DNA of 64,000 nucleotides from Legionellaceae bacterium (GTDB taxonomy: Bacteria; Pseudomonadota; Gammaproteobacteria; UBA12402): positions 1,865 to 65,864 of the forward strand of contig PANR01000018.1 in the NCBI GenBank assembly GCA_002707695.1, written 5' to 3'. Below are positions 143-36,031 of the stretch, one piece after another. The notes beneath the pieces were generated by a model. The model did no database searches. It worked only from the letters and a program-made list of their open reading frames with translations, and was not told the DNA's origin. Position numbers and translations under genes: made by a program. Position 1 is the first letter of the stretch, and every line of letters begins with the position of its first letter.

Positions 143-916
143 CTATTCTGTTTCACTAAACAAATCAACATATCGACTTAATTCTGACTGGGATGGGTAA
201 TTAATTAACACCGACCTTTTTTTATCATGAAAAATGAAAACGCTGCCCGCACCCGCAGCGAATACACCACCTGAGGCGAAAATATCATGAAAATCTTGCA
301 AACTACCCGCGCCGCCGCAGGCTACAACGGGAATCGACAAGCGGTTGGTAATTGTTTTAACAAGCTCAATATCATAACCCTCCATGGTGCCATCGCGATC
401 AACTGCATTAATGATCAACTCTCCCGCGCCCTTTGCTTGAACACTCAACGCGTATTCCTCTGCCAAGCAAGCGGTTAATTTTCCTCGCGAATAAACCCTA
501 TAACGCCCCCTCCAATCTTTTTTTACATCCATCGTGACAACAATGGTTGAGCTGCCAAATGCTTTTGCAGCTTCCTCAACCAGCTGGTCATTTACAATGG
601 CCGCTGTATTAAGCGACACCTTTTCAACACCCAACTTTAGAATATGTTCAATATCGGATAATGTACGCACACCACCCCCATAGCAAAGAGGCATAAAACA
701 CTCTGATGCAAACTCTGAAATCAATTGAAAATTAATTTCAGAGCCTGGTTTACTCGCCGAAATATCAAAAACAACGAGCTCGTCAACCTCTTTATCATTA
801 AAAATTTTAGCAGTATTAATCGGTTCACCTATATAAACTGGCCGTTTAAATTTGACTGTTTTAACAAGCTTATTATCTTGCACCAATAACACAGGAATAA
901 CTCTATTTTCTATCAC
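143..916 (-). CDS. imidazole glycerol phosphate synthase cyclase subunit paralog (HisF-like, WbuZ-type) dedicated to glycan biosynthesis
   Basis: The 257-aa protein has the HisF (beta/alpha)8 fold signature (VIPVLLV...GGGVRTL...). It sits in an operon with a hisH paralog and the wbuX-like gene, not with his genes. Confidence 0.85.
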   Translation of the reverse strand: MIENRVIPVLLVQDNKLVKTVKFKRPVYIGEPINTAKIFNDKEVDELVVFDISASKPGSEINFQLISEFASECFMPLCYGGGVRTLSDIEHILKLGVEKVSLNTAAIVNDQLVEEAAKAFGSSTIVVTMDVKKDWRGRYRVYSRGKLTACLAEEYALSVQAKGAGELIINAVDRDGTMEGYDIELVKTITNRLSIPVVACGGAGSLQDFHDIFASGGVFAAGAGSVFIFHDKKRSVLINYPSQSELSRYVDLFSETE

Positions 917-1579
917 TTAACTCATCTCACAAAAATTTTTTAAAAGTTGCATGCCATGTCGATGACTTTTTTCAGGATGGAATTGAACACCGTATATATT
1001 ATCGTGCGCAACAGACGCCACATAATCGATACCATACTGACTTGTTGCCGCAATATCAGCATCATGTGCACAATGCATATGGTAAGAGTGAACAAAATAA
1101 AATTTTTTCAAATCAGACATTCCTTTAAATAACACTTCACCATCGGGTCGAGACTCAACACGTCGCCACCCCATGTTAGGAACCTTTAAATGAGGGTAGT
1201 CTTGTGGATTAAATTTTTTTATCTCTGCGTCGATCCAACCTAGGCCAGCACAACCACCCTCCTCACTATGTTTGGCAAACAACTGCATGCCTAAGCAAAT
1301 ACCCAGAATAGGCTTCTTTTCACGCAAAACAGTTTCTTCCAGTGGTGACAATAGCCCCATTTCGTTGATATTTTTTATGCCTGTCGCAAAAGAACCCACG
1401 CCAGGGAGTATCAATTTCTCTGCAGAAAATAAATCATCAGGTCTATTAGAGATAATGGCATGTATGCCAATTTTCTTTAGCATATTCAAAACTGACTGAA
1501 GATTTCCCAAACCATAATCAACAATAACAATCAAACAATATCTCCTAAAGATTACAGCAAACCAATAACACGTTAACAA
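917..1579 (-). CDS. glutamine amidotransferase subunit paralog (HisH-like, WbuY-type)
   Basis: The protein carries the class I GATase motifs (IVDYGLGNLQSV, GICLGMQLF, HSY) and lies immediately upstream of the hisF paralog. The true start is probably internal or non-ATG, near IVIVDYG. Confidence 0.85.
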   Translation of the reverse strand: MLTCYWFAVIFRRYCLIVIVDYGLGNLQSVLNMLKKIGIHAIISNRPDDLFSAEKLILPGVGSFATGIKNINEMGLLSPLEETVLREKKPILGICLGMQLFAKHSEEGGCAGLGWIDAEIKKFNPQDYPHLKVPNMGWRRVESRPDGEVLFKGMSDLKKFYFVHSYHMHCAHDADIAATSQYGIDYVASVAHDNIYGVQFHPEKSHRHGMQLLKNFCEMS

Positions 1580-2877
1580 TTCGTTTCATTTTTATAACGG
1601 GCATGCGTCATTATCGCATAAATGTTCAACAATATAAGGCAAAAATAAGCAATGATTATACTCAAAGCCAGCAGCATTAATGTTGCCCTGGGTGACACAC
1701 TTAAAAAGTGCGAAGGTAAAAATGCCAAGAGCACCAAAACACAAAACACAATGTTCCAGAAAAAATATATATGCTGCTTTTCAAGTAACGACAAGTTTTG
1801 GGATGGTGCAACAACCAAAAACTCAACCAAAAACATTGGAGCTAGCACCTGCGCATATACACCGGCTTCATACCAGTGAACGCCAAAAACTAAAGAAAAC
1901 AGCTTGGGACCAAACAGCAGTAAAACTAGCACAGGCATAATACCAATAATTAACAGCCTAAACATAGTTGACAAATATAACCTGAGCATAGCACGCAGAT
2001 CAACGTGTGCTAACTTTGCTGCTTCGCCCAAATATACTTTTCCTACAGAAGCCTCAATCAACGCTAGCGGCATTCTCACTGCTTGAGAAGCAAGACCATA
2101 AAATCCAGCAACCGTAATACCATGCTGAACAGTGAGCAGCAACGCGGGAATATAGAATGCAACAGAGTTTAACACCGCACCTGGCGCGCTAAAACAAACA
2201 AATCCAAGGTAGCGCTTAAGCGCCCCGAATAGTCGAACGATTTGGACATGAGAAAAAATACTTTGGTCATATTTGTAAGCATCTCGGCTTAACCCTCCAG
2301 CACCTGCTACGTGCCCAATTATCTGACCTACCAGGAGACCCAGAGCAGCAAACGGCAAAAAAGCGAACACCAGTTGAGCCGCGACCTGCCCCACTCCTTG
2401 TGCAATCTTAGTCTTGGCTAACGACTTAAAGCGACGCTGCCTAATTGCCCAATAACTTGTGACAGCATAGATTGCAGCCCCACAAACGCCCAGCGGAAGT
2501 AACCATAGATAAGGGTAAAAGCGGGGAAACTTCAACCAATCTACAAAAAAATGGCCCACCAGGGGAATAAGCAAGAACAAAACGGCTGAAAAAAAGATAC
2601 CAACGATTAATGCAACCACACAAACATTTGCAGCAAGCTTATCATCACTTGGCAATGGGATTGCCCTCTCGTACCGCAAACATGCAAAAGCCGAAAAGAA
2701 GCCTAAGAGTGAACCATAAACGGAATAAACACCAAAATCTTGTGTAGAATATAACCTGGTAATAAGGGGCATCGCCAACATAACAACGCCCTGGCCAATA
2801 ACACTTGCCACGACCAACTTACCTGCATTTGCAGCGAATGCATCTAGTCTTATAAACTGTTTAACTTGTCTAAGCAT
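1573..2877 (-). CDS. wzx: polysaccharide/O-antigen flippase Wzx (MOP/MATE-like polytopic membrane protein)
   Basis: The 434-aa protein is highly hydrophobic with about 12 predicted TM helices and sits in the glycan operon. The call rests on family resemblance only. Confidence 0.65.
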   Translation of the reverse strand: MLRQVKQFIRLDAFAANAGKLVVASVIGQGVVMLAMPLITRLYSTQDFGVYSVYGSLLGFFSAFACLRYERAIPLPSDDKLAANVCVVALIVGIFFSAVLFLLIPLVGHFFVDWLKFPRFYPYLWLLPLGVCGAAIYAVTSYWAIRQRRFKSLAKTKIAQGVGQVAAQLVFAFLPFAALGLLVGQIIGHVAGAGGLSRDAYKYDQSIFSHVQIVRLFGALKRYLGFVCFSAPGAVLNSVAFYIPALLLTVQHGITVAGFYGLASQAVRMPLALIEASVGKVYLGEAAKLAHVDLRAMLRLYLSTMFRLLIIGIMPVLVLLLFGPKLFSLVFGVHWYEAGVYAQVLAPMFLVEFLVVAPSQNLSLLEKQHIYFFWNIVFCVLVLLAFLPSHFLSVSPRATLMLLALSIIIAYFCLILLNIYAIMTHARYKNETNC

Positions 2878-7424: not shown

Positions 7425-9491
7425 ATGGAGCATAATTTGGTGCGTAATTTTTCGTTGGTTACCAAACAAGCAAAGCCAAACTTACCAAAAATAACCAACC
7501 AGGCCAGACCTGATTTTGAACAAAAAACACGCTTCTGGCTTGCACTTTTTATTTTCTTTGCTGCTTTCTTCCTACGATTTGCCTACCTCCATCGCCAAGG
7601 CTTTTGGGATAGTGATGAATATTATTCATACCGCTTCATCGTTGCCTATTTGCTGCACCACAACCTTGATCCAGCTTCAGGGGGAGATATGTGGGGTAGA
7701 CCGTTTGGTTTTTTAACCTCATATTTCTTCATGAAACTTTTTGGCTTTACCCCTTTTTCTACCCACATCAAGAGCGCACTTTTTGGATTTCTCAGTATTG
7801 TTATTGGCTACATTGTCGGGGAGAGGCATCTGGGCAAAAATGCGGGATTATTTGCAGCCGCTCTAATGACAAGTTTGTATAGCCTGGTTTACTACTCACG
7901 CACAATGAAAATGACTGCACCCTCTATGTTATTTTGTGCTTTAGCAATCTGGATTTTATTTGAAATTATGAATACACCCGGCATACAAAAGCACGCTTTA
8001 TGCGGCCTCATGCTTGGTTTTATGATCACCACTCATCCTGCCACTATACCGATGGCTTTTTCTATTTTAATGCTATTAGGTATCGTCACGCTTATTAAAG
8101 AAAAAAACTTTAAAACCACCTATATTTACGGCCTACTCACCTTGCTTGGCCTTGCCATCCCGATAATAGGCTGCGAGTTATTTTATCTCCGAACAAAGCT
8201 TTTACCATGGTGGCACATGACGCGGCACGCTGATTACTTAAGCAATGTATTCTTTACCAGTGTTAATGGCGCCCAGCCCCAGTGGGAACACGCCAAACCC
8301 CATCTTTCATTTTTCCTGGGTGAAATTCGAAACAATGGAAAACCGCTTTTGTATGCCATTATTGCCGGACAACTATTTTCTGCGCTGAACTTAACAACTA
8401 AAAAAATGAAACCATTTTTACTCACTATCATGTTTTGGTTACCTGTATTAATTTACACGTATATTCTGCACACGACAGAGGCTGAACGAGACATCTTTAC
8501 CTCCCTATTCCCTGGATGCTTAGTTGTGGGCTATATGTTAGCGCGCATAATCAACCAACTCAAATCAACAGGCATACTTAAAGCAACGGCGCTAACAGCC
8601 ATAACAATCATTTTGTTAGCTTACGGCTTACCCAGAAGCTTTCCAATCATTAAAAACGCATCGGCTGCACAAAACATATATGACGTGATTGGTAATGAGC
8701 AAGCCTCTATGACTCGCCCCTCAACCAATACCGCTCAGTGGCAGCACTACTACTTCACCAATAACGCTCTCTTTGTGGATGGCTGGAACGATGTGTTAAC
8801 TAACTTTTTACTCAATCGGGCGAGCTATTTCATACAACTTACACCAGGCTGGACAAAAAAAACGAATTTCAGCAACACTGAAAAATTCGCGACGTCATAC
8901 AAAACAGCAAACAGCAACGGACGCTTTTCTACCACCTACCTGTACACGCCAAAACAACTTGAAACTATCTTTAAAAACAAATTTTCTCTGACAAAAATTA
9001 AAACCATTGACTTAAATACATTTTCCTCAGTTAAAGATATCCGAGGAAACAGCCCTCTAAATGAATTAATTTCAAAGAAAGGCAAGCAAGCCACCATTAC
9101 CATTCCGCTCAATGCCAACCTTTTAGTCGTTAGCGGAAAAATTGCTTTAAACCCTAGCATAGGAGAAAAGATTAACATCGCCATTGGTAATCACAACAAC
9201 CCAACTGCCTATGCTGTAAAATCGTTTTCTCCACGACAACGCAGCCTAATTTTACCAAACGAGAAAGCAACAAGTATATTTTGCGTGTGGAAATTATCCG
9301 GCAAACAACCCACTCAGCTAACACTCTCCGCTCTATTAAGCAAACATCTATCGTTATTAACCTTGCTGACAAATACGCAAGCAACATTTGATTATTTTTC
9401 AACGATAAGCAAAAAACAGATAAAAGCCTTTTCAGTTACCTTTTATCACATTCCAGAACAGTATCTACCGCAAAACATGCCGACCCTTTAA
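7425..9491 (+). CDS. GT-C fold glycosyltransferase (ArnT / PMT-like, GT39/GT83-type) with a C-terminal periplasmic domain; paralog 1
   Basis: The 688-aa polytopic N-terminal part carries the first-loop motif FWDSDEYYSY (compare ArnT WQPDETRYAE). It is a close paralog of 18889..20940. Confidence 0.6.
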   Translation: MEHNLVRNFSLVTKQAKPNLPKITNQARPDFEQKTRFWLALFIFFAAFFLRFAYLHRQGFWDSDEYYSYRFIVAYLLHHNLDPASGGDMWGRPFGFLTSYFFMKLFGFTPFSTHIKSALFGFLSIVIGYIVGERHLGKNAGLFAAALMTSLYSLVYYSRTMKMTAPSMLFCALAIWILFEIMNTPGIQKHALCGLMLGFMITTHPATIPMAFSILMLLGIVTLIKEKNFKTTYIYGLLTLLGLAIPIIGCELFYLRTKLLPWWHMTRHADYLSNVFFTSVNGAQPQWEHAKPHLSFFLGEIRNNGKPLLYAIIAGQLFSALNLTTKKMKPFLLTIMFWLPVLIYTYILHTTEAERDIFTSLFPGCLVVGYMLARIINQLKSTGILKATALTAITIILLAYGLPRSFPIIKNASAAQNIYDVIGNEQASMTRPSTNTAQWQHYYFTNNALFVDGWNDVLTNFLLNRASYFIQLTPGWTKKTNFSNTEKFATSYKTANSNGRFSTTYLYTPKQLETIFKNKFSLTKIKTIDLNTFSSVKDIRGNSPLNELISKKGKQATITIPLNANLLVVSGKIALNPSIGEKINIAIGNHNNPTAYAVKSFSPRQRSLILPNEKATSIFCVWKLSGKQPTQLTLSALLSKHLSLLTLLTNTQATFDYFSTISKKQIKAFSVTFYHIPEQYLPQNMPTL

Positions 9492-9493
9492 AA

Positions 9494-10291
9494 TTATCGG
9501 GAAAAATACGTTGCCCTCATACGTTCACTCATTGCGATAAAATTTGGATTTAACAATGATTCGGTTGTGTTATACTGTATTTCTGTTAGGTTATTTTCTC
9601 GCAACAACACCCCTCCCGCTTCACTTAAAACACAATGTGCAGCAGCGGTATCCCACTCTGATGTTGGTCCTAAACGAGGATAAATATCTGCCTTACCCTC
9701 TGCCACCAAACAAATTTTTAACGAGCTGCCCACATTAATTAACTCATATTGCTCAAATCTACTCAGCATTTTTTTCAATTGGTCGCTATTGCCATGCCGT
9801 CGACTCGCCACCACACGTACGCGTGTTGGCACTTCATGATTGGCTCGGATTTGAGTCACTTTTCCTTGCTCAACTTTATACGCCCCCCGCCCTTGCTCAG
9901 CGTAATACATCACATCAAGCGCTGGCGCATAAACGACACCCATAACTGGTCGATGATCTTCAATCAACGCGATATTAACGGTGAATTCGTCAGAACGATG
10001 GATGAATTCTTTTGTGCCATCGAGCGGATCAACAAGCCAATAACGATCCCATGCTTTTCTTTGATCCCAGGGCACTACGCTGGACTCTTCGGACAACACA
10101 GGCAATGCCGGCATTAAACGTTTGAGCCCTTCCACAATAATTTGATGTGCTGTCAAATCTGCTTGCGTTAATGGCGAGCCATCTTGTTTGGCAATCACTT
10201 CGAACGCTTCAGGGCTGCGATAAATATCTAACACTGCCTTGCCAGCATCCCGTGCAACCCGCACAACAGCATTCATCCACTCAGACCGCAT
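9494..10291 (-). CDS. cysQ: 3'(2'),5'-bisphosphate nucleotidase CysQ
   Basis: The protein has inositol monophosphatase family motifs (WLVDPLDGTKEF, DTAA). Confidence 0.8.
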   Translation of the reverse strand: MRSEWMNAVVRVARDAGKAVLDIYRSPEAFEVIAKQDGSPLTQADLTAHQIIVEGLKRLMPALPVLSEESSVVPWDQRKAWDRYWLVDPLDGTKEFIHRSDEFTVNIALIEDHRPVMGVVYAPALDVMYYAEQGRGAYKVEQGKVTQIRANHEVPTRVRVVASRRHGNSDQLKKMLSRFEQYELINVGSSLKICLVAEGKADIYPRLGPTSEWDTAAAHCVLSEAGGVLLRENNLTEIQYNTTESLLNPNFIAMSERMRATYFSR

Positions 10292-10436
10292 TTAACAACC
10301 CTCTTCATATTTTTTGACATATAAATGCTCAATTTCATGCGCATCAGCCAGCATCCTAGATGAATTATCCCTTGATTTCATCCTATAATTTTATCATAGT
10401 ACCTCAACTTCTAACTGCATTGATGGTACATAGGCA

Positions 10437-11438
10437 ATGGAAAATTTCTGGAAAAACAAGCGCGTCCTTATCACTGGCATCTGTGGCACCATTGGCCAAG
10501 AGCTATTGCGCCAACTACATGAAGCAGCGGTGTCTGAAATAGTAGGTATTGATAATAATGAAACAGGGCTTTTTTTCCTCAAACAAAAATATCAAACAAG
10601 CTCTCACATCACACTCGAGCTAGGCGATCTCAGAGACCGCGATAGGTTGATAAGCATAATGCGCGGCATTGATGTGGTATTACATGCAGCCGCCTTAAAG
10701 CACGTCGGCCTATGCGAGCAATCTCCTTCGGACGCTATTCAAACGAATATTTTAGGCACTCAAAACATTATTCAGGCCGCTATTCACAACAAAGTGGCTA
10801 GAGTGCTATACACCTCATCTGATAAAGCCGTCAACCCAACTAATGTAATGGGCACCTCAAAGCTAATGGGAGAGCGCCTCATTACAGCGGCCAACAATTT
10901 TGGCGATGGCAATACGGTATTTCTTTCAACACGATTTGGAAATGTGTTGGGGTCAAGAGGGTCGGTTATTCCACTTTTCAAAAAACAAATTGCCCAGGGA
11001 GGGCCTGTTACACTGACGCATCCTGACATGACACGCTTTATCATGACACTCTCTGAAGCCACAAAATTAGTGATTGACAGTGCCTTTCTTGGCAATGCCG
11101 GTGAAGTTATGGTGACTAAAATGCCAGCCATCAACATAAAAGATTTGGCTGAAATTATGGTTCGAGAGCTTGATCCGTCGGTGCAAATTAAGTTGATCGG
11201 TTCAAAGATTGGCGAAAAAATGTATGAAGAACTGGTTAACGAAGAAGAAGTTCGCCGAACGAGGGAAACCAATAATTATTTTATTATTGAACCTGCTTTT
11301 GCCGCTCAGCGAAGCAATGCGCCATCCATCCACTCTGCATACAATTCACAAAAAAGTAAAAAAATGTCCAGAGAAGATCTGCGAACCTATTTGAAAAAGA
11401 ATCAGCTTCTTCACGAACAAGAGGAAGTGATAGCATGA
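10437..11438 (+). CDS. short soluble CapD/PseB/WbpM-C-terminal-like UDP-sugar 4,6-dehydratase
   Basis: The 333-aa protein has a GxxGxxG start (ITGICGTIGQ) and the motif TSSDKAVNPTNVMGTSK with FGNVLGSRGSVIPLF. These are near-identical to the catalytic domain of the WbpM-like protein at 27889..29754. Confidence 0.75.
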   Translation: MENFWKNKRVLITGICGTIGQELLRQLHEAAVSEIVGIDNNETGLFFLKQKYQTSSHITLELGDLRDRDRLISIMRGIDVVLHAAALKHVGLCEQSPSDAIQTNILGTQNIIQAAIHNKVARVLYTSSDKAVNPTNVMGTSKLMGERLITAANNFGDGNTVFLSTRFGNVLGSRGSVIPLFKKQIAQGGPVTLTHPDMTRFIMTLSEATKLVIDSAFLGNAGEVMVTKMPAINIKDLAEIMVRELDPSVQIKLIGSKIGEKMYEELVNEEEVRRTRETNNYFIIEPAFAAQRSNAPSIHSAYNSQKSKKMSREDLRTYLKKNQLLHEQEEVIA

Positions 11439-12580
11439 ACGTTTTAATTCTTGGTGCCGACGGTTATCTTGGCTGGCCGACAGCAATGTTTTTTGCACAA
11501 CAGGGCCACAAAGTTTGCGCGGTTGATAACTATTTGCGGCGCAAGCTGGCCGCAGCGCATCAAGCCGAAGCACTTATCCCCACGCCAGATTTACAGAAGC
11601 GTGCTGAGATTTTTAAACGTCAAACTGGCAACGCAATTGAAACACACATTGTTGATTGCGCCGACTATGAACAACTATCCAGTCTTTTTCAATCGTTTAA
11701 GCCCGATGCAGTTATCCACTATGCCGAACAACCTTCTGCGCCTTTTTCTATGCTTGGGTTTAAAAACGCCTCCTTGACCCTAAATAATAATCTTAATACG
11801 ACATTCAATGTGATTTGGGCTGTCATGGAACATGCGCCTGACTGTCACATTATCAAACTTGGCACAATGGGCGAGTATGGCACGCCAAATATTGATATCG
11901 AAGAAGGCTGGCTGAACATCACGCACAATGGCCGCTCAGATAAATTTTTATATCCCAGACAAGCGGGCAGCCTCTACCACACAACAAAAGTGTTAGATAC
12001 GGATTTACTCTGGTTCTATGTTCGCAACAATAAATTGCGCGTTACTGACCTCATGCAAGGGCCTGTATATGGACTATCAACGCCTGAAACCGAGCTAGAT
12101 GATGAGCTCTTACCTAATTTTCACTACGATGATATATTTGGCACTGTCGTTAACCGATTTCTTGTGCAAGCAGTTGCCGGCATGCCATTGACCGTTTATG
12201 GAAGTGGCGGTCAGACGCGTGGTTACCTCAATTTAAATGATACGCTACAATGCGTTAAGTTGGCGGCTGATACGCCAGCAAAACCAGGTGAGTTACGAGT
12301 ATTTAACCAGCTTACCGAATTATTTAGCGTTAACCAACTGGCCGAGAAAATCAAAAATGTTGGAGATGGCCTGAACCTAAATGTACAAATAAAATCAATC
12401 ACCAACCCACGGAAAGAAAATGAAGACCACTATTATAATGTTAAGCATCACGGCCTTGCCGAGCTAGGCTTAAAACCACACCTCATGACAGATGAAGTTA
12501 TCAAAGGCATGTTAAACAAAGTGCTTAACTTCAAAGACAACATCGATGAGTCAAAAATTCTTCCCAAAATAAAATGGTAG
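11435..12580 (+). CDS. sqdB: UDP-sulfoquinovose synthase (SQD1 / SqdB / Agl3 family)
   Basis: The N-terminal motif LGADGYLGW matches the SQD1 GGDGYCGW, with DNYLRRK following. The stretch KLGTMGEYGTPNIDIEEGW..ITHNGRSD..YHTTKV matches the SQD1 active-site region as I recall it. The protein is 381 aa. Confidence 0.8.
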   Translation: MNVLILGADGYLGWPTAMFFAQQGHKVCAVDNYLRRKLAAAHQAEALIPTPDLQKRAEIFKRQTGNAIETHIVDCADYEQLSSLFQSFKPDAVIHYAEQPSAPFSMLGFKNASLTLNNNLNTTFNVIWAVMEHAPDCHIIKLGTMGEYGTPNIDIEEGWLNITHNGRSDKFLYPRQAGSLYHTTKVLDTDLLWFYVRNNKLRVTDLMQGPVYGLSTPETELDDELLPNFHYDDIFGTVVNRFLVQAVAGMPLTVYGSGGQTRGYLNLNDTLQCVKLAADTPAKPGELRVFNQLTELFSVNQLAEKIKNVGDGLNLNVQIKSITNPRKENEDHYYNVKHHGLAELGLKPHLMTDEVIKGMLNKVLNFKDNIDESKILPKIKW

Positions 12581-12593
12581 CTGTGTCAAACCT

Positions 12594-13574
12594 ATGATAA
12601 CTGCTAAACAGATTGTTAAAAAAAACTTAGCAAAATTATTTATTTCTCTATTGATCACCCTATTTTTAGGTGGCTTCATCGTACAGTATACCAACTTTGA
12701 AAAGTTTTTAGCAACTTTCCAAAATATTCACTGGTTTTATTTTTTGTTATCTATTGGCCTCTTCATTCTTTATCAATATATTAGACGGCTTAGGTTTCAA
12801 CTGTTAATTAACGCCAGCTGCAATCAATTACATCTTTTGAATACACAATGCATTCATTCTGCCGCAAGAAATATTTTACCCATTGGCTTAGGCGAAGCTG
12901 CATTTGTTTACTTAATGAAACGTTTTTATCGATGCAGTTATCACGAAACCACAGCTGCTATTATTATTGCAAAAATGTTAGACCTATTAATTTTGCTCTT
13001 TCTATCAACCGCATTCGTTGTGTTTCTTTCCGCAACTTTCCAAAAAAACATAATTATTGCCTTATTTGGGCTGTTGTTATTATTACTAATCTCATCAGCT
13101 GGTATTTTTTTGTTGTTACGCATCGAAAGAAACAGGCGGCTGAAGAAAAAAGATTTCAAAAACTCTTTTTTGAGCAGAAACTTAACGTTACTTGCGTCTT
13201 CCATCAGAACCGTTATAAAAAAGGGCATGAGCTACAAACTTGGCGTTTATTCAATAGCCATGATCACGGTAATGTATTTCTTTTATGTCTCTTTGTTCCA
13301 TACGCTAGGGCTCAACCTTAAATGGCATGTAACGGCAATTGCCTACTTAGTTGCTGGCGGCATTGGCTTACTACCCATAAAAGGACTTGCAAATATTGGT
13401 ACATTTGAGGCCCCCTGGTTTATCGTGTTAACCAGCTTTAATCTATCGACAGAAAAGGCCGCTATTGCTAGTTTTGGTGTACACATTTTGTTATTTGTTA
13501 GTGTATTTATTTCGCTGATAATTTCAACAAGCTTACTCATTATTTCAAAGAACCTACATAAACCACTTCAGTGA
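12594..13574 (+). CDS. flippase-like polytopic membrane protein (UPF0104 / LPG-synthase-TM-type)
   Basis: The 326-aa protein has about 8 TM segments. It is arranged directly upstream of a GtrB-like GT2, as in lipid-linked glycosylation modules. Confidence 0.5.
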   Translation: MITAKQIVKKNLAKLFISLLITLFLGGFIVQYTNFEKFLATFQNIHWFYFLLSIGLFILYQYIRRLRFQLLINASCNQLHLLNTQCIHSAARNILPIGLGEAAFVYLMKRFYRCSYHETTAAIIIAKMLDLLILLFLSTAFVVFLSATFQKNIIIALFGLLLLLLISSAGIFLLLRIERNRRLKKKDFKNSFLSRNLTLLASSIRTVIKKGMSYKLGVYSIAMITVMYFFYVSLFHTLGLNLKWHVTAIAYLVAGGIGLLPIKGLANIGTFEAPWFIVLTSFNLSTEKAAIASFGVHILLFVSVFISLIISTSLLIISKNLHKPLQ

Positions 13575-13667
13575 GTGCAGCAGAACTCTGCACAACAACA
13601 TCCCAGTCAAAGCATACATAAAGACTCCTAGATCAGGTAGCCTAACAGCGAGCTTTTATGCTACAGT

Positions 13668-14729
13668 ATGCCTACTATGAGCTCATTCTCACTGCTACGA
13701 ACATCTGGGTTAATTCTAGGCCTCGTTTTTCTAGTCGCCTTATTCAAAACGCTGCGCAGCACCCCTGGCCGGCGCATGTATGTTAATACTTTTTTCTTGT
13801 TGGGCTCCGGACTCATTCTTGTCTCCCTGTTTCCAAATATTATAAATTCTCCCGCTGCCTTTTTCTCACTATCGAACGTTAAAGGCGGGCGCATTATTAC
13901 TTTACTCATCGTCGCTAACATCGCCTTATTACTATTTGCACTATATATAAATAAAAGAACTTACCAGATAAAATCTCAAATCAACCAATTTATCGAAAAA
14001 GTTGTGAGCAGTGAGACATCAAAAAATGCTTCAAACGAGAATTTATCTGAATTCATTGTAGTATTAATCCCCGCATATAACGAAGCAGAAAATTTAAAAA
14101 TGTTGCTGCCTAAAATACCCAGCTCTATTCATGGAAAAATTGTAAAGGCTCTAATTGTTGATGATGGTAGCTCTGACAGTACTGGCATAGTTGCCGAAGC
14201 AAATAACGCCATTCTTATTAAGCACCCATTCAACCGCGGAGGCGGCGCAGCACTAAGAACCGGTTACCAATTTGCAAAACAAAATCATGCGACCATCATC
14301 GTTACAATGGATGCTGATGGTCAACACGACCCGCGAGAGCTTGTGAACCTGACCACTCCTCTTCTTGAAAAGAAGGCGGACTTTGTTATCGGATCAAGAA
14401 CGCTTGGCTCATTTGACAGCTACTCACGAACCAGGATTCTTGGCTTATACTTTTTTAACTTCCTTCTCACCGTGCTGATGGGAATCAAAGTCACCGACTG
14501 TTCTAGTGGCTACAGGGCATTAAACTTATCTGCGCTTAGTCAAATTAGACTGCGCCAAGATCAATACCACACTGCCGAATTAATTATTGATGCGGCAAAA
14601 AATGGGGTCAAGATACTCGACGTCCCTATTCATGTCTCGCCACGCTACAGCGGTGAAAGCAAAAAAGGACACAATCTCTTTTATGCTTTCCGATTTTTAC
14701 GAACCATATTAACTTCTTGGTGGGCGTAA
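13668..14729 (+). CDS. GT2 polyprenyl-phosphate sugar synthase (DPM1/ArnC/GtrB-like) with an N-terminal TM region
   Basis: The protein has the motifs VLIPAYNE, DDGSSD and TMDADGQHDP (DxD) after two N-terminal TM helices. Confidence 0.7.
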   Translation: MPTMSSFSLLRTSGLILGLVFLVALFKTLRSTPGRRMYVNTFFLLGSGLILVSLFPNIINSPAAFFSLSNVKGGRIITLLIVANIALLLFALYINKRTYQIKSQINQFIEKVVSSETSKNASNENLSEFIVVLIPAYNEAENLKMLLPKIPSSIHGKIVKALIVDDGSSDSTGIVAEANNAILIKHPFNRGGGAALRTGYQFAKQNHATIIVTMDADGQHDPRELVNLTTPLLEKKADFVIGSRTLGSFDSYSRTRILGLYFFNFLLTVLMGIKVTDCSSGYRALNLSALSQIRLRQDQYHTAELIIDAAKNGVKILDVPIHVSPRYSGESKKGHNLFYAFRFLRTILTSWWA

Positions 14730-14759
14730 TCGTTGCTCGCACGATCGCATGAGCAATTC

Positions 14760-15911
14760 TTAAAGGTAACCAATATGCTCAAGCTTTAGCAGTATTTTTT
14801 GCACAGCCTCATCCGGCAAACAATTCGCCGCGTCAATAGCAAGCTCCGGGCTTGTTGGCACTTCATAAGGATCATCAATCCCAGTGAAATTTTTTATCTC
14901 ACCTTCACGGGCTTTTTTATACAGGCCTTTCCGGTCGCGCTGTTCACACACCTCCAAGCTGGTTGACACGTATATCTCAACATAACCTGCGCCATGCTGA
15001 TCAACCAACTTCCTGACGTCTGCTCTCGCTTCTTCGTAGGGGGCAATAGGCGCACAAATAGCAACGCCACCGTGTTTGGCAATCTCACTTGCAACAAAAC
15101 CAATACGTCTAACATTGATGTTACGGTCCTCCTTAGAAAAACCTAAACCCTTTGATAACGCTTGTTTACGTATCAAGTCGCCATCAAGCAGCGTCACAGC
15201 ACGACCGCCTATTTCTAATAATTTAATCATCAATGCATTAGCGATGGTTGATTTCCCAGCACCTGACAAACCAGTAAAAAACACTACAAAACCTTGCTTA
15301 GATTTAGGAGGATGTGTTTTACGCAACTCATCGATAATTTCTGGATAAGAAAACCATGCAGGCACTTCTATACCATCACGCAAACGACGCCTAAATTCGG
15401 TGCCTGATATTGTTAGAACGGTTTCACCACCGCTTAATTTATCTTTTGGCAAGTACTGCCCTTTTTCTTCAACGTAAACTACCTCTTGAAAAGGAATCAT
15501 TTCAATACCAATCTCACCTTCATACCGCCTTATTAAATCTTGCGCATCATAAGGACCATAAAAATCTTGCCCTTGAGAATTTTTTCCAGGACCCGCGTGA
15601 TCACGCCCAACGATGAAATGAGTGCAACCATAATTTTTGCGAATGATTGCATGCCACAATGCCTCGCGCGGCCCAGCCATGCGCATCGCGAGCGGCAACA
15701 AGCTCAACATAGTTGTTTGCTCAGGATATCGCTGAAGCATTTTTTCATAGCAACGAACACGGGTGTAATGATCTATGTCGCCGGGCTTGGTCATACCAAC
15801 CACAGGATGAATCAATAAATTAGCCTCATTATCTTTAGCAGCTCTCAACGTAAGCTCTTGATGCGCACGGTGCATTGGGTTGCGCGTTTGAAACGCAACA
15901 ATTTTTTCCAA
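14760..15911 (-). CDS. sat/cysC: ATP sulfurylase catalytic domain fused to APS kinase (Sat-CysC); the C-terminal portion of a frameshifted gene
   Basis: The ATP sulfurylase motifs are VAFQTRNPMHRAH and GRDHAGPG. The APS kinase P-loop is FFTGLSGAGKST. The gene continues from 15845..16468 in another frame. Confidence 0.75.
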   Translation of the reverse strand: MEKIVAFQTRNPMHRAHQELTLRAAKDNEANLLIHPVVGMTKPGDIDHYTRVRCYEKMLQRYPEQTTMLSLLPLAMRMAGPREALWHAIIRKNYGCTHFIVGRDHAGPGKNSQGQDFYGPYDAQDLIRRYEGEIGIEMIPFQEVVYVEEKGQYLPKDKLSGGETVLTISGTEFRRRLRDGIEVPAWFSYPEIIDELRKTHPPKSKQGFVVFFTGLSGAGKSTIANALMIKLLEIGGRAVTLLDGDLIRKQALSKGLGFSKEDRNINVRRIGFVASEIAKHGGVAICAPIAPYEEARADVRKLVDQHGAGYVEIYVSTSLEVCEQRDRKGLYKKAREGEIKNFTGIDDPYEVPTSPELAIDAANCLPDEAVQKILLKLEHIGYL

Positions 15912-16468
15912 CCTAACTTTTGGAACTGCGCCTTAAGCTCTGCGGGGGTGTGACGCAAATGCCGAAAATCGTAGTGCGTAGGTACAGCCGCTTTTTTAAG
16001 CTTACCACCCACATAATATTCACCCGCATGCTTGTGCAAATAACAAACAGCCGGATGTGCCATGTCATCCGCGCCAAAAACCGCCTTGGCCTCTAACGAT
16101 TTATCAGGCCGCCAGATATCGGTCACAGTTAAAATGGCAACCAACATTCCTTCTGGATCCCTTAGCGCAATTTCTGCCCCGCACTTGACTGATTGAGCAA
16201 ATAACCTCGACACATCGAGCGTAATCGGCATGGGCCAAAGTGTGCCATTTTGTAGACGCATACTGGCAAGAACGCTTTGATAATCTGCTTGAGACATGAA
16301 CCCATTCAACGGCGCAAAGCCTCCATTAATAAGTAATTCAAGATCACAAAGTTGTCGGGGTGCAAGAGACCATTCAAGCATAGCCGCTTCTTTTTGGTCA
16401 TTAGTTTGCTTTAGACCCAACATTAAATCAGATATTTTTTCATCAAATGGTGTAATTTCTTCACCCAT
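15845..16468 (-). CDS. sat: ATP sulfurylase N-terminal (PUA-like) domain; the N-terminal portion of the frameshifted sat-cysC
   Basis: The fragment ends ..FQKLGWKK exactly where sulfurylases continue ..VVAFQTRNP. The frames switch at an A6 run (T6 at 15902-15907 on the + strand). Confidence 0.7.
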   Translation of the reverse strand: MGEEITPFDEKISDLMLGLKQTNDQKEAAMLEWSLAPRQLCDLELLINGGFAPLNGFMSQADYQSVLASMRLQNGTLWPMPITLDVSRLFAQSVKCGAEIALRDPEGMLVAILTVTDIWRPDKSLEAKAVFGADDMAHPAVCYLHKHAGEYYVGGKLKKAAVPTHYDFRHLRHTPAELKAQFQKLGWKKLLRFKRATQCTVRIKSLR

Positions 16469-16730
16469 CTCTCACCTCACACATGAAACCATAGCAAACA
16501 TAAGTTGCTTCCAACTAACGTTTACTTTGTCTCGCATAGTAAACTAATCAGGACTTGACTTCATCATCGGCCAGTCAATTTAATAAAAAGTAAAATATGA
16601 TTTAACCACCCATTTTCTTATTCCCCAACCATTTCAGAAATTTCACCAGCACTTTTATTGCTCTAAGCTTGCAAATCAATTACTATTTGCTCAAATCCCC
16701 TGTCAACTAGAGCAAGAAGGATAGCAAAAC

Positions 16731-16979
16731 TTGATAAAACCAACAGATGCAAGGCGACGAAGCTTTCTCAAAGCCTTGAGCTGGCGATGCTTGGCTACAC
16801 TCACAACTTTTCTTATCAGTTATGTCGTAACGGGCAACTTTGCTTTTGCTGCCTCTATCGGTGGCCTTGAAGTCATTGCAAAAATTATTCTGTATTACTT
16901 TCATGAAAGAGCGTGGAATCAAGCCAGATTTTGGCAACATGTAAAACAACCAGATGAGCCTGCAGCGGATGCAAAATAG
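16731..16979 (+). CDS. DUF2061-like small membrane protein
   Basis: The 82-aa protein has two TM helices and a WRCLATLTTFLISYVVTG...YYFHERAW pattern. It is typically found beside APS/PAPS reductase genes. Confidence 0.55.
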   Translation: MIKPTDARRRSFLKALSWRCLATLTTFLISYVVTGNFAFAASIGGLEVIAKIILYYFHERAWNQARFWQHVKQPDEPAADAK

Positions 16980-17712
16980 CCCTCGATTTGCTAGCCCTGA
17001 TAGCCTAGAAATTCAGACAAAAAAATTAGAGACTTTTACGCCGCAAGAAATTCTGGCTTGGGCCTGGAATGAATACGCACCTCGAGTAAAAGTTGCCACC
17101 GGCTTTGGCGCCGAGGGCATGGTTTTAATTCACATGCTTGCCGAAATCGCGCCTCAAATATCTGTGTTTAATTTAGACACTGGTTATCAATTTCCTGAAA
17201 GCCTGTCACTCAAAGAAGCCGTTAAAAAACGCTATGGTATTGATATCAAACTTGTGCAGCCAGAAACTTCCGTAACAGACTATGAAAAAATTCATGGTGG
17301 CCCTGTTTATTTAACCGACGCAAATCAATGCTGTCATGATAGAAAAGTAACTGTCTTAAAAAAAGCACTGCAAGGAACCTCTGCCTGGCTAACTGCGATT
17401 AGGCGAGACCAGAGCCCAACCCGATCTAATGTGCCCATTTTGGGCTGGGATAAACAATTTAACCTTGTCAAAATCAACCCACTCGCCAACTGGAACAAGC
17501 ATGACGTATGGGCATTTATAAAAAAATACAACATTCCCTACAACCCCTTATATGATCAAGGCTATACCAGCATTGGGTGCTGGCCTTGCACAAAAAAACC
17601 CAATAATAGTGACGAACGATCCGGACGGTGGTCAGGGAGCGAGAAAACTGAATGTGGCATTCACCACCCAAACTTGAAAATCAATTCAACTCACTCACTA
17701 AAGTCTCAATAA
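16954..17712 (+). CDS. cysH: phosphoadenosine phosphosulfate (PAPS) reductase CysH
   Basis: The protein has the PP-loop region and the C-terminal KTECGIH active-site Cys motif. Confidence 0.85.
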   Translation: MSLQRMQNSPRFASPDSLEIQTKKLETFTPQEILAWAWNEYAPRVKVATGFGAEGMVLIHMLAEIAPQISVFNLDTGYQFPESLSLKEAVKKRYGIDIKLVQPETSVTDYEKIHGGPVYLTDANQCCHDRKVTVLKKALQGTSAWLTAIRRDQSPTRSNVPILGWDKQFNLVKINPLANWNKHDVWAFIKKYNIPYNPLYDQGYTSIGCWPCTKKPNNSDERSGRWSGSEKTECGIHHPNLKINSTHSLKSQ

Positions 17713-18772
17713 TTAGATCCTGCTGACTCGCATTAATATATGGATGCATCGGCAAACTTAGCACTTGACCTGACAATTCTTCAGAGGTGAAAAGCTTGTC
17801 AGAACAAATGATTTGTTCTTTGTAAGCAGGCTGTTTATGTAGAGGCTCAGGATAATGCACAATACTCGGAATTCCCTGTTTTTTTAAAGCGAGCATCGCG
17901 CTATCTCTATCCTCAAGTCTGATGACGTACTGCGCATACACACTTCTGCCAAATGCTTCCACGAAAGGTAATTGAATGTTTGTACCCAATCCTGTATTAT
18001 AACGATCAGCCACTTGTTGTCGCAACTCAATTTCTTCCGGAAAAATTTTTAATTTTTCTAATAAAATTGCGGCCTGAATGGTATCTAATCGAGAATTCAT
18101 TCCCACCCTAACATGCTGATACTTTTGCGCTTGGCCATGCACATGAATCTGCTTCATTCTTTCAGCTAACTCATCATCATCGGTAAAGCAGGCACCACCA
18201 TCACCATAACATCCAAGCGGTTTTGCAGGGAAAAAACTTGTTGTCGCAATCGTCGACAAATGGCAAGATCGCCGCCCCTTATATGTTGCCCCCATGCTTT
18301 GTGCAGCATCTTCGATAACCGGCAAATTGTGCTTCTTCGCGATTTGATTAATCGCATCAAAATCGCAGCACTGACCAAACAAATTCACAGGGACAATTGC
18401 TTTTGTTTTGGATGTGATAGCCGATTCCAGTTTAGACACATCTAGATTGAATGTTCTCTCATCGACATCAACCAACACGGGTGTGGCTCCCAAGAAAACA
18501 ATCATTTCAAGAGCAGCAATGTAGGAAAAAGCGGGGGCAATCACTTCATCGCCAGGGCCAATATCAAGCGCCATCATGGCAATCAGCAAAGCATCAGTAC
18601 CGTTGGCTACTGCGATACAATGCCGACTGTCAACAAATTGAGACAACGCTTCTTCAAGCTGCATCACCTCAGGACCCATGATATATTTCCCATGATCCAA
18701 TACTCTTTTAATGGCAGATTCTATTGGTTGTCTAATTTTTTTTTGTTGTGCTTCAATATCAATAAACTTCAC
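17681..18772 (-). CDS. DegT/DnrJ/EryC1-family PLP sugar aminotransferase (ArnB/WecE-like)
   Basis: The 363-aa protein has the family N-terminal pattern (GKYIMGPEV..LE..) and a conserved Lys region. Confidence 0.8.
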   Translation of the reverse strand: MKFIDIEAQQKKIRQPIESAIKRVLDHGKYIMGPEVMQLEEALSQFVDSRHCIAVANGTDALLIAMMALDIGPGDEVIAPAFSYIAALEMIVFLGATPVLVDVDERTFNLDVSKLESAITSKTKAIVPVNLFGQCCDFDAINQIAKKHNLPVIEDAAQSMGATYKGRRSCHLSTIATTSFFPAKPLGCYGDGGACFTDDDELAERMKQIHVHGQAQKYQHVRVGMNSRLDTIQAAILLEKLKIFPEEIELRQQVADRYNTGLGTNIQLPFVEAFGRSVYAQYVIRLEDRDSAMLALKKQGIPSIVHYPEPLHKQPAYKEQIICSDKLFTSEELSGQVLSLPMHPYINASQQDLIIETLVSELN

Positions 18773-18888
18773 ACCCTTCCCCTCCGCCTATAACCCACTG
18801 ACCCATACACCAGGTTGCAACAGGAATTGAATACGCTCTAAAAGTATCATAGAATCAGCTCCTCGACAAAGGGCGGGGGCATAAATTA

Positions 18889-20940
18889 ATGCAAATTTTA
18901 AGAGCAACTGGTGATAAAATAAAAACTGCGCTTTTGAAAACATTCCATGCCTATACTCAGCTTAATTCTGAACAAAAAACGCGTCTAACCCTTGCGCTCT
19001 TGATTTTTTTTACTGGATTTTTCCTCAGATTTGCCTACCTGAAGTATCAAGGCTTTTGGGACAGTGATGAATATGCGTCATATGCAGCCATGATGGGACA
19101 AATTCTTCAAGGAGACTTGTCTCATTTTTTGGGTGGCAATATGTGGGGGAGACCTTTTGGGTTCTTAACCTCGTATTTTTTCATGAAAATCTTCGGCTTC
19201 ACCCCTTACGCAATTCACATTAAAAGCGCACTACTTGGATTTTGTACCATTGTAATAGGCTACATCATTGGGGAGAAACACTTGTGTAAAAATGCTGGGT
19301 TATTTGCAGCAGCATTAATAGCGAGTTCGTATGAGCTTGTTTACTACTCACGCACAATGAAAATGACAGCCCCGTCTATGTTTTTCTGCGCACTGGCAAT
19401 ATGGATTTTATTTGAAATCATAGACAACCCCGGCACCCAGCGGCATGCTTTGTGCGGACTGATGTTAGGTTTTATGCTCACCACACACCCTGCGACCATC
19501 CCCATGACAGCAACTATCTTACTTATGCTTGCCATTGTAACAATCGCAAAGGAAAAAAAAATTGGGCAATCGCTAAACTATGGTCTTCTCACCTTGCTAG
19601 GCCTCCTCACCCCCATCATTGGCTGTGAATTGTTTTACCTTAGCGCAAAAATTTTGCCATGGTGGCATACCGCACCCAACATAGATTACATGAAATTTTT
19701 ATTCTTCTACAACCAACATGGGCCAGCTAACCTACAACATGTAAAACCTCATATTTCTTCTTTTCTCGGTGAAATAACAAATAACGGTAAAGCTCTCTTG
19801 TATCTTATAGGGGCTGGGCAGGCAATTTCCCTGATTGCTTTGCTTAAAGGAAAAATTAAACCCTTTTTACTCAGCATGATATTTTGGCTGCCGATTTTAA
19901 TCTACACCTATATCCTGCACCCTGTAGTGGCTGAACGCAATATTTTTACATCTCTATTTCCGGGCTGCTTGATTGGGGGGTATTTTTTTGCATACCTCAT
20001 TAATCAGACCAAACTAACATCGTTCCTTAAATCTTTCGCCATAGCAATCACATCATTCGCGCTCCTGACCTATGGAATTCCCAAAAGCCTTCCTATCATC
20101 AAAAATGCATCGGCCGCACAGAACATATATGATTATATTGGCAGCCAACAGGCCTCTATGACCCGCCCCTCCAAAAGCGTATATCAGTGGGAACATTACT
20201 ACTTCACAAACAGTTCGCTTTCCGTTGACAATTGGAGTGATGTGTTAAAAAATTTTCTACTGAACCGAGCTAATTATCTCATCCAACTCACCCCCTCCTG
20301 GACAAACGCTACTGGCTTTGAAGACACACAAAAATATGCAACTCAATTTAGGACGGCAGAGAGTCATGGTGGATTTTCTGTTTACTATCTCTACAATCCA
20401 AAACAGCTCGAAAAAATTTTGAAAGATAAATTTTCTCTGACAAAAATCAAATCAATTAATCTAAAAAGATTTTCTTCACTGACTGGCATACAAAAAAGTC
20501 AAAGCAACAAATATATGTTTGAAAAAAAAGCAAAGCAAATTATTATTAACATCCCAACTGACGCCAACCTCCTAGCAATTAGTGGGAGAATTCCCCTTAA
20601 TCCCGATATCGGAGAAAGTATTAATATTGCAATTGGAAACAAAAGCAAACCCACTCTGTACACCTTAAAATCTTTTTCTCCTCATGAAAACGGGGCGTTA
20701 TTACCCAACGAGAAAGAAACTAACATTTTTTATGTCTGGGAACTAGCTGGTAAAAAACTCACTCAACTGACTCTGTCCCCCTTGCTGACCAAGCGTTTAT
20801 CGCTGCGCGCTTTGCTGAGAAACTTTCCAGAAGCATTTGCCTATTTTTTTGCAACTGACAAAAAACAAATAAAAGGCTTTTCTGTCACCTTCTATCACAT
20901 CCCTAACAAATATCTACCAAAAAATATGCCGTCGATTTAA
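18889..20940 (+). CDS. GT-C fold glycosyltransferase (ArnT/PMT-like); paralog 2
   Basis: The 683-aa protein has the motif FWDSDEYASY. It is collinear and highly similar to 7425..9491 (for example GGNMWGRPFGFLTSYFFMK and SAAQNIYD). Confidence 0.6.
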   Translation: MQILRATGDKIKTALLKTFHAYTQLNSEQKTRLTLALLIFFTGFFLRFAYLKYQGFWDSDEYASYAAMMGQILQGDLSHFLGGNMWGRPFGFLTSYFFMKIFGFTPYAIHIKSALLGFCTIVIGYIIGEKHLCKNAGLFAAALIASSYELVYYSRTMKMTAPSMFFCALAIWILFEIIDNPGTQRHALCGLMLGFMLTTHPATIPMTATILLMLAIVTIAKEKKIGQSLNYGLLTLLGLLTPIIGCELFYLSAKILPWWHTAPNIDYMKFLFFYNQHGPANLQHVKPHISSFLGEITNNGKALLYLIGAGQAISLIALLKGKIKPFLLSMIFWLPILIYTYILHPVVAERNIFTSLFPGCLIGGYFFAYLINQTKLTSFLKSFAIAITSFALLTYGIPKSLPIIKNASAAQNIYDYIGSQQASMTRPSKSVYQWEHYYFTNSSLSVDNWSDVLKNFLLNRANYLIQLTPSWTNATGFEDTQKYATQFRTAESHGGFSVYYLYNPKQLEKILKDKFSLTKIKSINLKRFSSLTGIQKSQSNKYMFEKKAKQIIINIPTDANLLAISGRIPLNPDIGESINIAIGNKSKPTLYTLKSFSPHENGALLPNEKETNIFYVWELAGKKLTQLTLSPLLTKRLSLRALLRNFPEAFAYFFATDKKQIKGFSVTFYHIPNKYLPKNMPSI

Positions 20941-21000
20941 TGGTGGATCTTTTTTGCAGTTGCTTAACATGGATACCATGCTGTCTCAACTTAAACAACA

Positions 21001-21987
21001 TCATTCTTCCCAGCTCGACTCACACCTAGTGTCTCGAGATGAGTCCATGTCAAACCACATAGCAAAAAATAAAGACTGGAAGCCTGAAATAACTAAAAAA
21101 GCTGCAAACAATGCTGAGGTTGCTGCAACAGAATGGCCAAGCAGTCTTGTCACAACGAGAACCAAACCAAACACTGAGCCCAGTGGCAACACAACAATAG
21201 ATAATAAATAAAACAATACTAGCGGATGAAAATCACGAATGATATATTTTTCCTTCATCCGCCAAAAAAAACATTTGAACAATATGATTGATAGTGACCA
21301 TGTTGCGGAAAAAAGCCCAATACTAGAAACCTCACCGACACCATAAACCGGCTTTGTATGAATATCGCATACACGAAACTGATGTATATTAAGCGCTACT
21401 AACACTATATTTGGCAACCCGTAGCGACGATACAGTTTTTCCAATTTAACTGCTTTAAGTGCACGTAACGATATCGCAGTATAACCATTTTGGGGATCAC
21501 CCACATGCCAATACCCAGATGCAATTTTGGTCAAAAAAGATAAAATGGCGCTGCCCAAATATCGACCCTTGGGAAAATCATCTCGCGCACCTTCAATAAG
21601 CAGCCTATTTCCTTTTGTATAATCCGCTTTGTTAGCAACAATTGGCTCAATATAACGGTGTAGCTGCTCAGGGTCCATCTGCGCATCACCTGCCATTACA
21701 GCTGTCACCTCCATATTGTTATCTCTTGCCCATCGATATCCTGTTGCTACCGCCCCACCAGGCCCTGCATTCTTTTTATGTTCGATTAAAACAAGACGAT
21801 CCGCATATGATTTTTTAATTTTCTTGACGACTGCAACAGTATCATCTTTACTCTTATCATCAACCACAACCATTCGGTCAACATAATCGGGCATCGTTGT
21901 TATCACTTTTTCAATTTGGCGAGCTTCATTGTAGGCCGGAATGACAACACAGATTGACTTGCCTTTAAACATGTTTATGATCTCCAA
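21001..21987 (-). CDS. GT2 polyprenyl-phosphate glycosyltransferase (GtrB/ArnC-like) with two C-terminal TM helices
   Basis: The protein has the motifs VVIPAYNE, DDKSKDDT and MAGDAQMDP, plus a C-terminal hydrophobic hairpin. Confidence 0.75.
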   Translation of the reverse strand: MEIINMFKGKSICVVIPAYNEARQIEKVITTMPDYVDRMVVVDDKSKDDTVAVVKKIKKSYADRLVLIEHKKNAGPGGAVATGYRWARDNNMEVTAVMAGDAQMDPEQLHRYIEPIVANKADYTKGNRLLIEGARDDFPKGRYLGSAILSFLTKIASGYWHVGDPQNGYTAISLRALKAVKLEKLYRRYGLPNIVLVALNIHQFRVCDIHTKPVYGVGEVSSIGLFSATWSLSIILFKCFFWRMKEKYIIRDFHPLVLFYLLSIVVLPLGSVFGLVLVVTRLLGHSVAATSALFAAFLVISGFQSLFFAMWFDMDSSRDTRCESSWEE

Positions 21988-30583: not shown

Positions 30584-30619
30584 TTGGAGAGCTCACCTCA
30601 GCGACAAGGATACTTATAT

Positions 30620-30931: not shown

Positions 30932-31182
30932 CGTTTTCTCCTTAGATTAACGTTAATAATAAAAAACCTTTCTGCAGACGCAATGATCCCGCAAGCAAGA
31001 TAATAGGTTGCAAAAAGGAATGAGTTGCTCGAACGAGCCCACGCATCGTAGCAAATTCGTTGCGAATGTCTAGGATCTGAGAGCAATTTCTTCCAAACTA
31101 ACGGGCAGCCGTCTTGTTTTTGACCGCTTCCTGGCGTATAGTGCGGTCATTGAATTAACTGACAGACTAAGAGAGGAATCTC

Positions 31183-35834: not shown

Positions 35835-35860
35835 CTAAACTCCAACACGTATTACACCAC

Positions 35861-35995: not shown

Positions 35996-36031
35996 CTCAG
36001 CTTAACACTTCACATACTACCAAACTTCACG

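Follow-up and report, generated by a model that had tools for sequence, protein, structure and literature searches.

A one-base frameshift in the sat/cysC gene of a marine Legionellaceae population: a probable young loss-of-function allele within a putative sulfoquinovose-type glycan cassette

Introduction

Frameshifts at homopolymeric runs are known from several settings. The phase-variable lipopolysaccharide (LPS) and glycan genes of Haemophilus, Neisseria, Campylobacter and Helicobacter carry homopolymeric tracts, and the tracts of known contingency loci measure roughly at least 8 nt for G/C and at least 9 nt for A/T. Bacterial transcriptional slippage has been described at runs of about 9 A/T, and in the herpesvirus thymidine kinase (TK) gene a 'savior indel' in a G7 run is accompanied by low-level compensatory frameshifting on this short run (PMC5009743). 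In Escherichia coli, ribosomal frameshifting at Z_ZZN tetramers that lack a stimulator amounts to about 0.15%, where the background is 0.11%, and six tetramers respond to a pseudoknot, A_AAA the most weakly (PMC4066793). Here, a frameshift at a run of six A residues is described in sat/cysC, the gene for a bifunctional ATP sulfurylase/adenosine 5'-phosphosulfate (APS) kinase, within a 64,000-nt stretch of contig PANR01000018.1 from a Legionellaceae bacterium (the window, meaning the whole stretch analyzed). With a probability of roughly 0.6, slippage has recently shortened the run by one base, from A7 to A6, and the locus represents a young loss-of-function sat/cysC allele in a marine Legionellaceae population. 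An earlier note on this DNA had proposed a recent pseudogene, a slippery site or a sequencing error, and the first of these three options is the best supported.

The sat/cysC gene and its lesion

The gene is encoded on the minus strand and consists of the following parts:

14760..16468, minus strand: whole sat/cysC gene with one frameshift, bifunctional sulfate adenylyltransferase/APS kinase, 569 residues after addition of one A
15845..16468, minus strand: N-terminal open reading frame (ORF) of 207 residues, 189 of them authentic up to GWKK and followed by 18 out-of-frame residues, with a TGA stop at 15845-15847
15902..15907, minus strand: A6 run of the coding strand (T6 on the plus strand), AAA AAA for K188-K189, presumed site of a one-base deletion
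14760..15911, minus strand: downstream ORF in the -1 frame, 383 residues from TTG 15911, reading (M/L)EKIVAFQTRNPMHRAH

Direct reading of the minus strand at the break gives ...CAAAAGTTAGGT TGG AAA AAA TTG TTG CGT TTC AAA CGC, with GGT as the codon directly 5' of TGG AAA AAA, and continues after CGC with GCA ACC CAA TGC ACC GTG CGC ATC AAG AGC TTA CGT TGA. This agrees with the earlier placement of a frameshift at the run and confirms that the stop codon ends at 15845. The N-terminal fragment had, however, been read as ending in ATQ at a stop, whereas CAA TGC encodes Gln-Cys and the 18-residue tail (15848-15901) is LLRFKRATQCTVRIKSLR*. Upstream of this tail, the authentic part of the fragment comprises the PUA-like domain I and the first helix of the catalytic domain. 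Insertion of one A into the A6 run yields, as had been proposed, a continuous ORF with the canonical junction GWKKIVAFQTRNPMHRAH, a string that is identical in the intact homologue P0003; the product has 569 residues instead of the predicted length of about 590. Gene callers begin the downstream ORF at ATG 15875, which gives 371 residues. Since the frame changes at 15902-15907, sat/cysC is not one uninterrupted ORF, and it is therefore a disrupted member of its family, i.e. a pseudogene or a recoded gene.

The identity of the enzyme as a bifunctional ATP sulfurylase/APS kinase is borne out by domain searches and structure-based relatives. In Pfam, the N-terminal ORF matches PUA_2 over residues 11-158 (E 1.4e-47), and the downstream ORF matches ATP-sulfurylase (E 1e-83, ~15318-15908) followed by APS_kinase (E 5e-61, ~14832-15296), so that the order across both ORFs is PUA_2, ATP-sulfurylase and APS_kinase, as in bifunctional Sat/CysC proteins. 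The ATP-sulfurylase match begins at profile position 20 of 212, which places the break within the catalytic domain and not between genes. After repair, the protein aligns without interruption across the junction to the ATP sulfurylase of P. chrysogenum (1I2D, E 2e-200) and, again unbroken, to the SAT/APS kinase of Aquifex aeolicus (2GKS, E 2e-183), and its translation contains QTRNPMHRAH, GRDHAGPG and the kinase P-loop GLSGAGKST. Judged from these domain matches, the two-ORF pattern is not due to chance.

Relatives and the ancestral state

Homologue counts rest on the best 120 homologues of the repaired 569-residue protein. All of them (120/120) are single polypeptides of 561-640 residues that contain all three domains, which runs counter to the possibility, raised in the earlier note, that orthologues are naturally encoded as two polypeptides at this junction. 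Their junction consensus is GW[KRNS][KR][IV]VAFQTRNP, with exactly GWKKIV in six. The comparison with orthologous loci that had been suggested is informative: the nearest relatives, P0001 (81% identity) and P0002 (76%), both have an intact sat/cysC, and none of the relatives' DNA examined has an A-run at the site, the L006 locus reading GGTTGGCGAAAAGTGGTT. In the P0001 locus, sat/cysC is followed by cysQ and a PMT_2 transferase, while in L006 a DUF2061 gene, cysH and a PseB-like gene adjoin it. The closest relatives of the UDP-sulfoquinovose synthase (SqdB)-like protein encoded near sat/cysC in the window, P0254 (81%) and P0255 (73%), come from the same two samples as P0001 and P0002 and are encoded in glycan clusters that also contain DUF2061, cysH or a cysQ fusion. 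As the two nearest relatives are intact, with similar loci and the same sulfoquinovose-type gene set, the intact sat/cysC is ancestral and part of the cassette. The contigs of these relatives derive from JGI sample 3300072015 (P0001, P0254) and from SRR25654131 (L006 and L026); the former has a sulfotransferase gene between sqdB and the flippase-like gene that is absent from the window, and the latter carries a 1037-residue CysQ-GT2 fusion.

A search with the N-terminal fragment for close relatives that are also split returned nothing above 64% identity except the query itself. Among GTDB genomes, the best match reached 66%, so that the species itself is absent from that collection. Several matches of about 200 residues carry frameshift-like tails (P0230, P0145, P0136, P0227, P0242, P0174) and were considered as signs of a hotspot or conserved site, an idea that was rejected: their shifts lie at different codons, go in both directions and occur without an A-run. 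Homologues with out-of-frame tails near the PUA/catalytic boundary also include P0181, and one is located on a 388-kb contig. These proteins are probably scattered errors or pseudogenes, and their apparent clustering a length-selection effect of the search, because a 207-residue query favors proteins of that length. Other short matches with PUA_2 only are contig-end partials or unrelated frameshifts elsewhere.

Age of the lesion

Of 171 alignment columns without variation among the 120 homologues, the repaired protein retains 170. At columns that are at least 95% conserved among 118 outgroup sequences, it has two unique deviations, compared with none in the intact P0001 and three in the intact P0002, and this comparison of conserved columns with intact relatives gave no sign of excess decay or relaxed selection. 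Hence the frameshift either arose recently, or does not inactivate the gene, or is not real. A second in-frame A6 run (15992-15997, minus strand) encodes K158-K159, and K159 stands in place of a glycine that is invariant among the homologues; reading of the alternative frames ruled out a compensated double frameshift at this run.

The window as a whole is rich in homopolymers, with 150 A/T runs of 6 nt, 52 of 7 nt, 19 of 8 nt and 3 of 9 nt, which is 4-6 times more than base composition predicts, and nearly all of these runs lie within genes. Of the 74 runs of at least 7 nt, 71 are located in uninterrupted long ORFs, so homopolymers are not, as a rule, places where this assembly breaks genes. 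The coding density is 91%, and no other broken gene was seen in the window; two overlapping same-strand ORF pairs (37007/37938 and 53911/57849) that were considered as further frameshifts are distinct genes instead.

Expression from the A6 allele

For the downstream ORF to be made independently, translation would have to begin anew. No Shine-Dalgarno sequence is found at a usable distance before TTG 15911 or ATG 15875: an AGG abuts the TTG with zero spacing, and the ATG is preceded by CAACCCA with no purine-rich stretch. A product from ATG 15875 would also be without QTRNP. A promoter/terminator scan of 14400-17100 found fewer promoter-like sites than in shuffled sequences and nothing usable for an internal start, while an Rfam scan returned two tRNAs and nothing else, with no riboswitch or leader in the vicinity of sat/cysC. 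Independent initiation thus appears unlikely.

The favored reading can be set out as follows. The ancestral tract would have been AAA AAA ATT (Lys-Lys-Ile, A7) in an orthodox bifunctional ATP sulfurylase/APS kinase gene, from which one A was lost, most probably by replication slippage. The mutant allele would yield a 207-residue fragment in which the PUA-like domain and a single helix are followed by 18 nonsense residues, whereas the remainder, which holds the APS kinase domain and the active-site motifs QTRNP/HRAH, would be untranslatable or poorly translated. The expected outcome is loss of function, or at best a knock-down of more than 99%, of the first step that supplies 3'-phosphoadenosine 5'-phosphosulfate (PAPS) and sulfite. 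The event would be young, because nothing else in the gene or cassette has decayed.

Two observations weigh against a true loss of function. First, the gene is otherwise perfect and every other gene of the cassette is intact, a state that fits a sequencing or consensus artifact, or a reversible or leaky state, equally well. Second, all contigs that carry the allele probably come from a single Tara sample (station 072 mesopelagic, TARA_B100000508), in which case their agreement is one among assemblers and not among independent read sets.

Alternative explanations

The alternative that survives best, unlikely as it is, holds that the organism truly has A7 and that A6 is a systematic error of the reads or the consensus, or else a minority allele that the assemblers fixed. 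The exact 207-residue fragment, including its nonsense tail, is found on six contigs, five of them among the matches listed: three ENA analyses, JGI 3300020367 (also in Logan) and NCBI GCA_001371155.1. Each of these five matches the window at 100% identity over 2-10.6 kb and has A6, which rules out a peculiarity of one assembler, though not one of the reads themselves. The sequencing error suggested in the earlier note is made improbable by this base-for-base agreement across different projects, while the likely common origin in one Tara sample, together with a coverage of about 3.3x for one contig (by its name), keeps part of the suggestion alive, as does the lack of any other defect in sat/cysC and in the neighboring pathway genes. 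The neighboring proteins, deposited at NCBI under 'MAG: Legionellaceae bacterium' as MAZ77373.1, MAZ77401.1 and others (locus tags CMF39_*), are also Tara Oceans genes (TARA_B100000508/TARA_072_MES_0.22-3), and the name of one contig includes run ERR599005. Tara metagenomes are Illumina data, in which homopolymers of 6-7 nt are seldom miscalled, and the 71 longer A/T runs in unbroken ORFs of the same 64 kb, up to 9 nt in length, likewise speak against such an artifact. In addition, the repaired 569-residue protein, corresponding to an A7 allele, was absent by exact look-up among 15 billion predicted proteins. The Tara gene catalogue enters the two halves of sat/cysC as two separate 'complete' genes, a caution for the use of such catalogues.

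Reversible phase variation, in which A6 and A7 would interconvert by replication slippage and thereby switch the PAPS/sulfite supply, and hence surface-glycan sulfoquinovose, OFF and ON, had been presented in the earlier note as a classic mechanism; for this locus it is improbable. The frame can be restored in one step at a homopolymer, the gene lies in a surface-glycan cassette, the absence of decay is what a transient OFF state would leave, and Legionellaceae are host-associated. Against this, a tract of A6/A7 is shorter than those of known contingency loci, and an ancestral A7 would have been one of dozens of equal or longer tracts in the window, unlike a dedicated contingency tract. Relatives have no tract at the site, so nothing indicates selection for mutability. 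A search of JGI metagenome contigs for run-length variants, using the flanks with a free gap of 4-9 nt, returned only the known Tara contig with A6; no length variant was found, in sequences that seemingly come from one sample.

More doubtful still is recoding, by which a full-length enzyme would arise from the A6 allele through a -1 slip of tRNA-Lys on A_AAA or through addition of an A by RNA polymerase, as a programmed event or a compensatory trickle. In the zero frame, the site reads UGG_AAA_AAA_UUG: the A_AAA tetramer is present, and the heptamer G_AAA_AAA does not conform to X_XXZ_ZZN. A -1 slip on the second AAA would re-pair perfectly and be followed by ATT, giving exactly the canonical GWKKIVAF, and compensatory frameshifting on a short run has the precedent of the herpesvirus TK G7 run (PMC5009743). 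The '+1' slippery site of the earlier note has the wrong direction, since the ribosome reaches the downstream frame by -1 (or +2), the corresponding change in DNA or mRNA being +1 nt. A candidate structure follows the run:

15871..15899, minus strand: hairpin GUUGCGU-UUCAAAC-GCGCAAC, starting 2 nt after the A-run and lying in the codons for the conserved VAFQTRN

Canonical -1 stimulation relies on a structure placed some 5-9 nt downstream of the motif, on a Shine-Dalgarno-like element upstream of it, or on both, and at 2 nt the hairpin is too close to act in this way. The 96-nt region folds no better than its shuffles (z = +0.55; 135/200 shuffles at least as good), and the search for an upstream Shine-Dalgarno-like element found a bare AGG only, ending 4 nt before the run. 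The motif is a weak tetramer of a kind that barely exceeds background in E. coli without a stimulator (PMC4066793), the A/T runs at which transcriptional slippage has been described measure about 9 nt (PMC5009743) and the run in sat/cysC 6 nt, and the shift is conserved in no relative, all 120 best homologues being encoded in one frame. Programmed recoding as such therefore finds no backing.

A live A6 allele, either as the OFF state of an A6/A7 switch or as a 'savior indel' with a rare -1 slippage trickle of Sat/CysC, is an improbable reading; were it true, the allele would tune or switch the display of sulfoquinovose-type sugars on the cells of a marine, protist-associated lineage of Legionellaceae.

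A functional split gene, whose separately made PUA-like and catalytic/kinase fragments assemble into an active enzyme, is hardly credible: the cut does lie close to the boundary of domains I and II and a product from TTG 15911 would retain IVAFQTRNP and both catalytic domains, but neither start has a usable Shine-Dalgarno sequence, the ATG 15875 product lacks QTRNP, 18 nonsense residues trail the N-terminal fragment, the cut falls at position 20 of 212 in the Pfam catalytic domain, and 0/120 best homologues are split, the short PUA_2-only matches being partials or unrelated frameshifts.

The surrounding glycan cassette

The disrupted gene is part of a glycan cassette (window 7425-21987) with the following order and members:

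7425-9491: ArnT/PMT_2-like transferase
9494..10291, minus strand: cysQ, 3'(2'),5'-bisphosphate nucleotidase (3'-phosphoadenosine 5'-phosphate phosphatase), intact, TIGR01331 314 bits against a cut-off of 229
next in order: PseB-like dehydratase
11435..12580, plus strand: UDP-sulfoquinovose synthase (SQD1/SqdB)-like protein, 381 residues, intact, presumed consumer of sulfite
next in order: flippase-like protein, polyprenyl-phosphate glycosyltransferase of family GT2, sat/cysC
16731-16979, plus strand: DUF2061 gene, divergent from sat/cysC, overlapping the start of cysH
16954-17712, plus strand: cysH, PAPS reductase, intact, NF002537 261 bits against a cut-off of 154, profile positions 5-242 of 244
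next in order: DegT aminotransferase
18889-20940: second PMT_2 transferase
end of the cassette: second GT2

The sulfoquinovose context proposed in the earlier note has real support. The SqdB-like protein matches plant SQD1 (1QRR) over its full length (residues 2-381 against 3-382, E 5.7e-127), its homologues are named UDP-sulfoquinovose synthase by JGI, and cysH and cysQ pass their NCBIfam cut-offs. A synthase of the SQD1/SqdB type and its sulfite supply (sat/cysC and cysH) are found together in one locus. With NCBIfam NF041015, the SqdB-like protein reaches 448 bits, below the equivalog cut-off of 575, so that the identity of the product sugar is putative. DUF2061 and cysH are transcribed divergently from sat/cysC, and the downstream steps of sulfite supply are intact.

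Since sat/cysC sits among cysQ, the SQD1-like synthase, cysH, polyprenyl-phosphate glycosyltransferases and ArnT-like transferases, it is reasonable that its state would gate the sulfite supply for a sulfoquinovose-type sugar, provided that there is no second copy in the genome. If the deletion is real, the population cannot activate sulfate through sat/cysC, and the SQD1-like pathway would be left without sulfite unless another source exists. This matters for predictions that use the metagenome-assembled genome of this uncultured Legionellaceae lineage to deduce its sulfur metabolism or the chemistry of its surface. The frameshift itself is an ordinary one-base change and involves no new mechanism; the surrounding cassette is of more interest than the lesion. 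None of the papers searched makes a relevant link between Legionella and sulfoquinovose, and to our knowledge a sulfoquinovose glycan is undescribed in protist-associated Legionellaceae.

Further features of the region concern the cassette and its surroundings. The small DUF2061 protein recurs beside cysH or sat/cysC-type genes in distant taxa (L006 3567-3818, L018, L019), and the two PMT_2 genes are paralogues that share about 75% of their nucleotides over 550 nt. A HisF-like/HisH-like (glutamine amidotransferase) pair adjoins a Polysacc_synt flippase gene (window 143-2877, minus strand), an arrangement known from LPS clusters for the synthesis of amidino-modified sugars. Neither an ORF of at least 120 residues nor an Rfam match is present in four intergenic gaps of 470-660 nt (30584-31182, 35835-36490, 53442-53910 and 60224-60759).

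Comparison with known systems

The gene product that the repaired frame would encode is a regular member of the bifunctional Sat/CysC family, with the same order of three domains as 2GKS and the gammaproteobacterial proteins and with 65-81% identity to many of the latter; it differs in that the deletion of one base interrupts the frame after K189, whereas every relative compared has a single ORF. Host-associated bacteria harbor young frameshift pseudogenes at short homopolymers, and these resemble the locus in the single A/T-run indel, in the otherwise undecayed gene and in the AT-rich, homopolymer-rich genome, but the window is not degraded overall, being 91% coding with no other broken gene seen. 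With the phase-variable LPS and glycan genes of Haemophilus, Neisseria, Campylobacter and Helicobacter, sat/cysC shares a homopolymer frameshift in a surface-glycan cluster; in contrast to these, its tract is short, unconserved and unexceptional in its genome, and shows no length polymorphism in what is seemingly one sample. The 'savior indel' of herpesvirus TK and the rescue by polymerase slippage at poly(A) tracts in Buchnera and Blochmannia (PMC5009743) are alike in that a single slip at a one-base homopolymer indel would regenerate the exact wild-type protein, but the endosymbiont tracts measure about 9 nt or more and leak function has been demonstrated in the savior and rescue cases, whereas the run in sat/cysC has 6 nt and a leak at it is hypothetical. 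Finally, the -1 sites of IS1 and IS3-family elements (A_AAA_AAC, A_AAA_AAG) share the A6 run and the direction of the shift, whereas the register G_AAA_AAA_U of sat/cysC means that only the A-site tRNA can re-pair, and the site has no stimulator, is not part of a mobile element and is not conserved.

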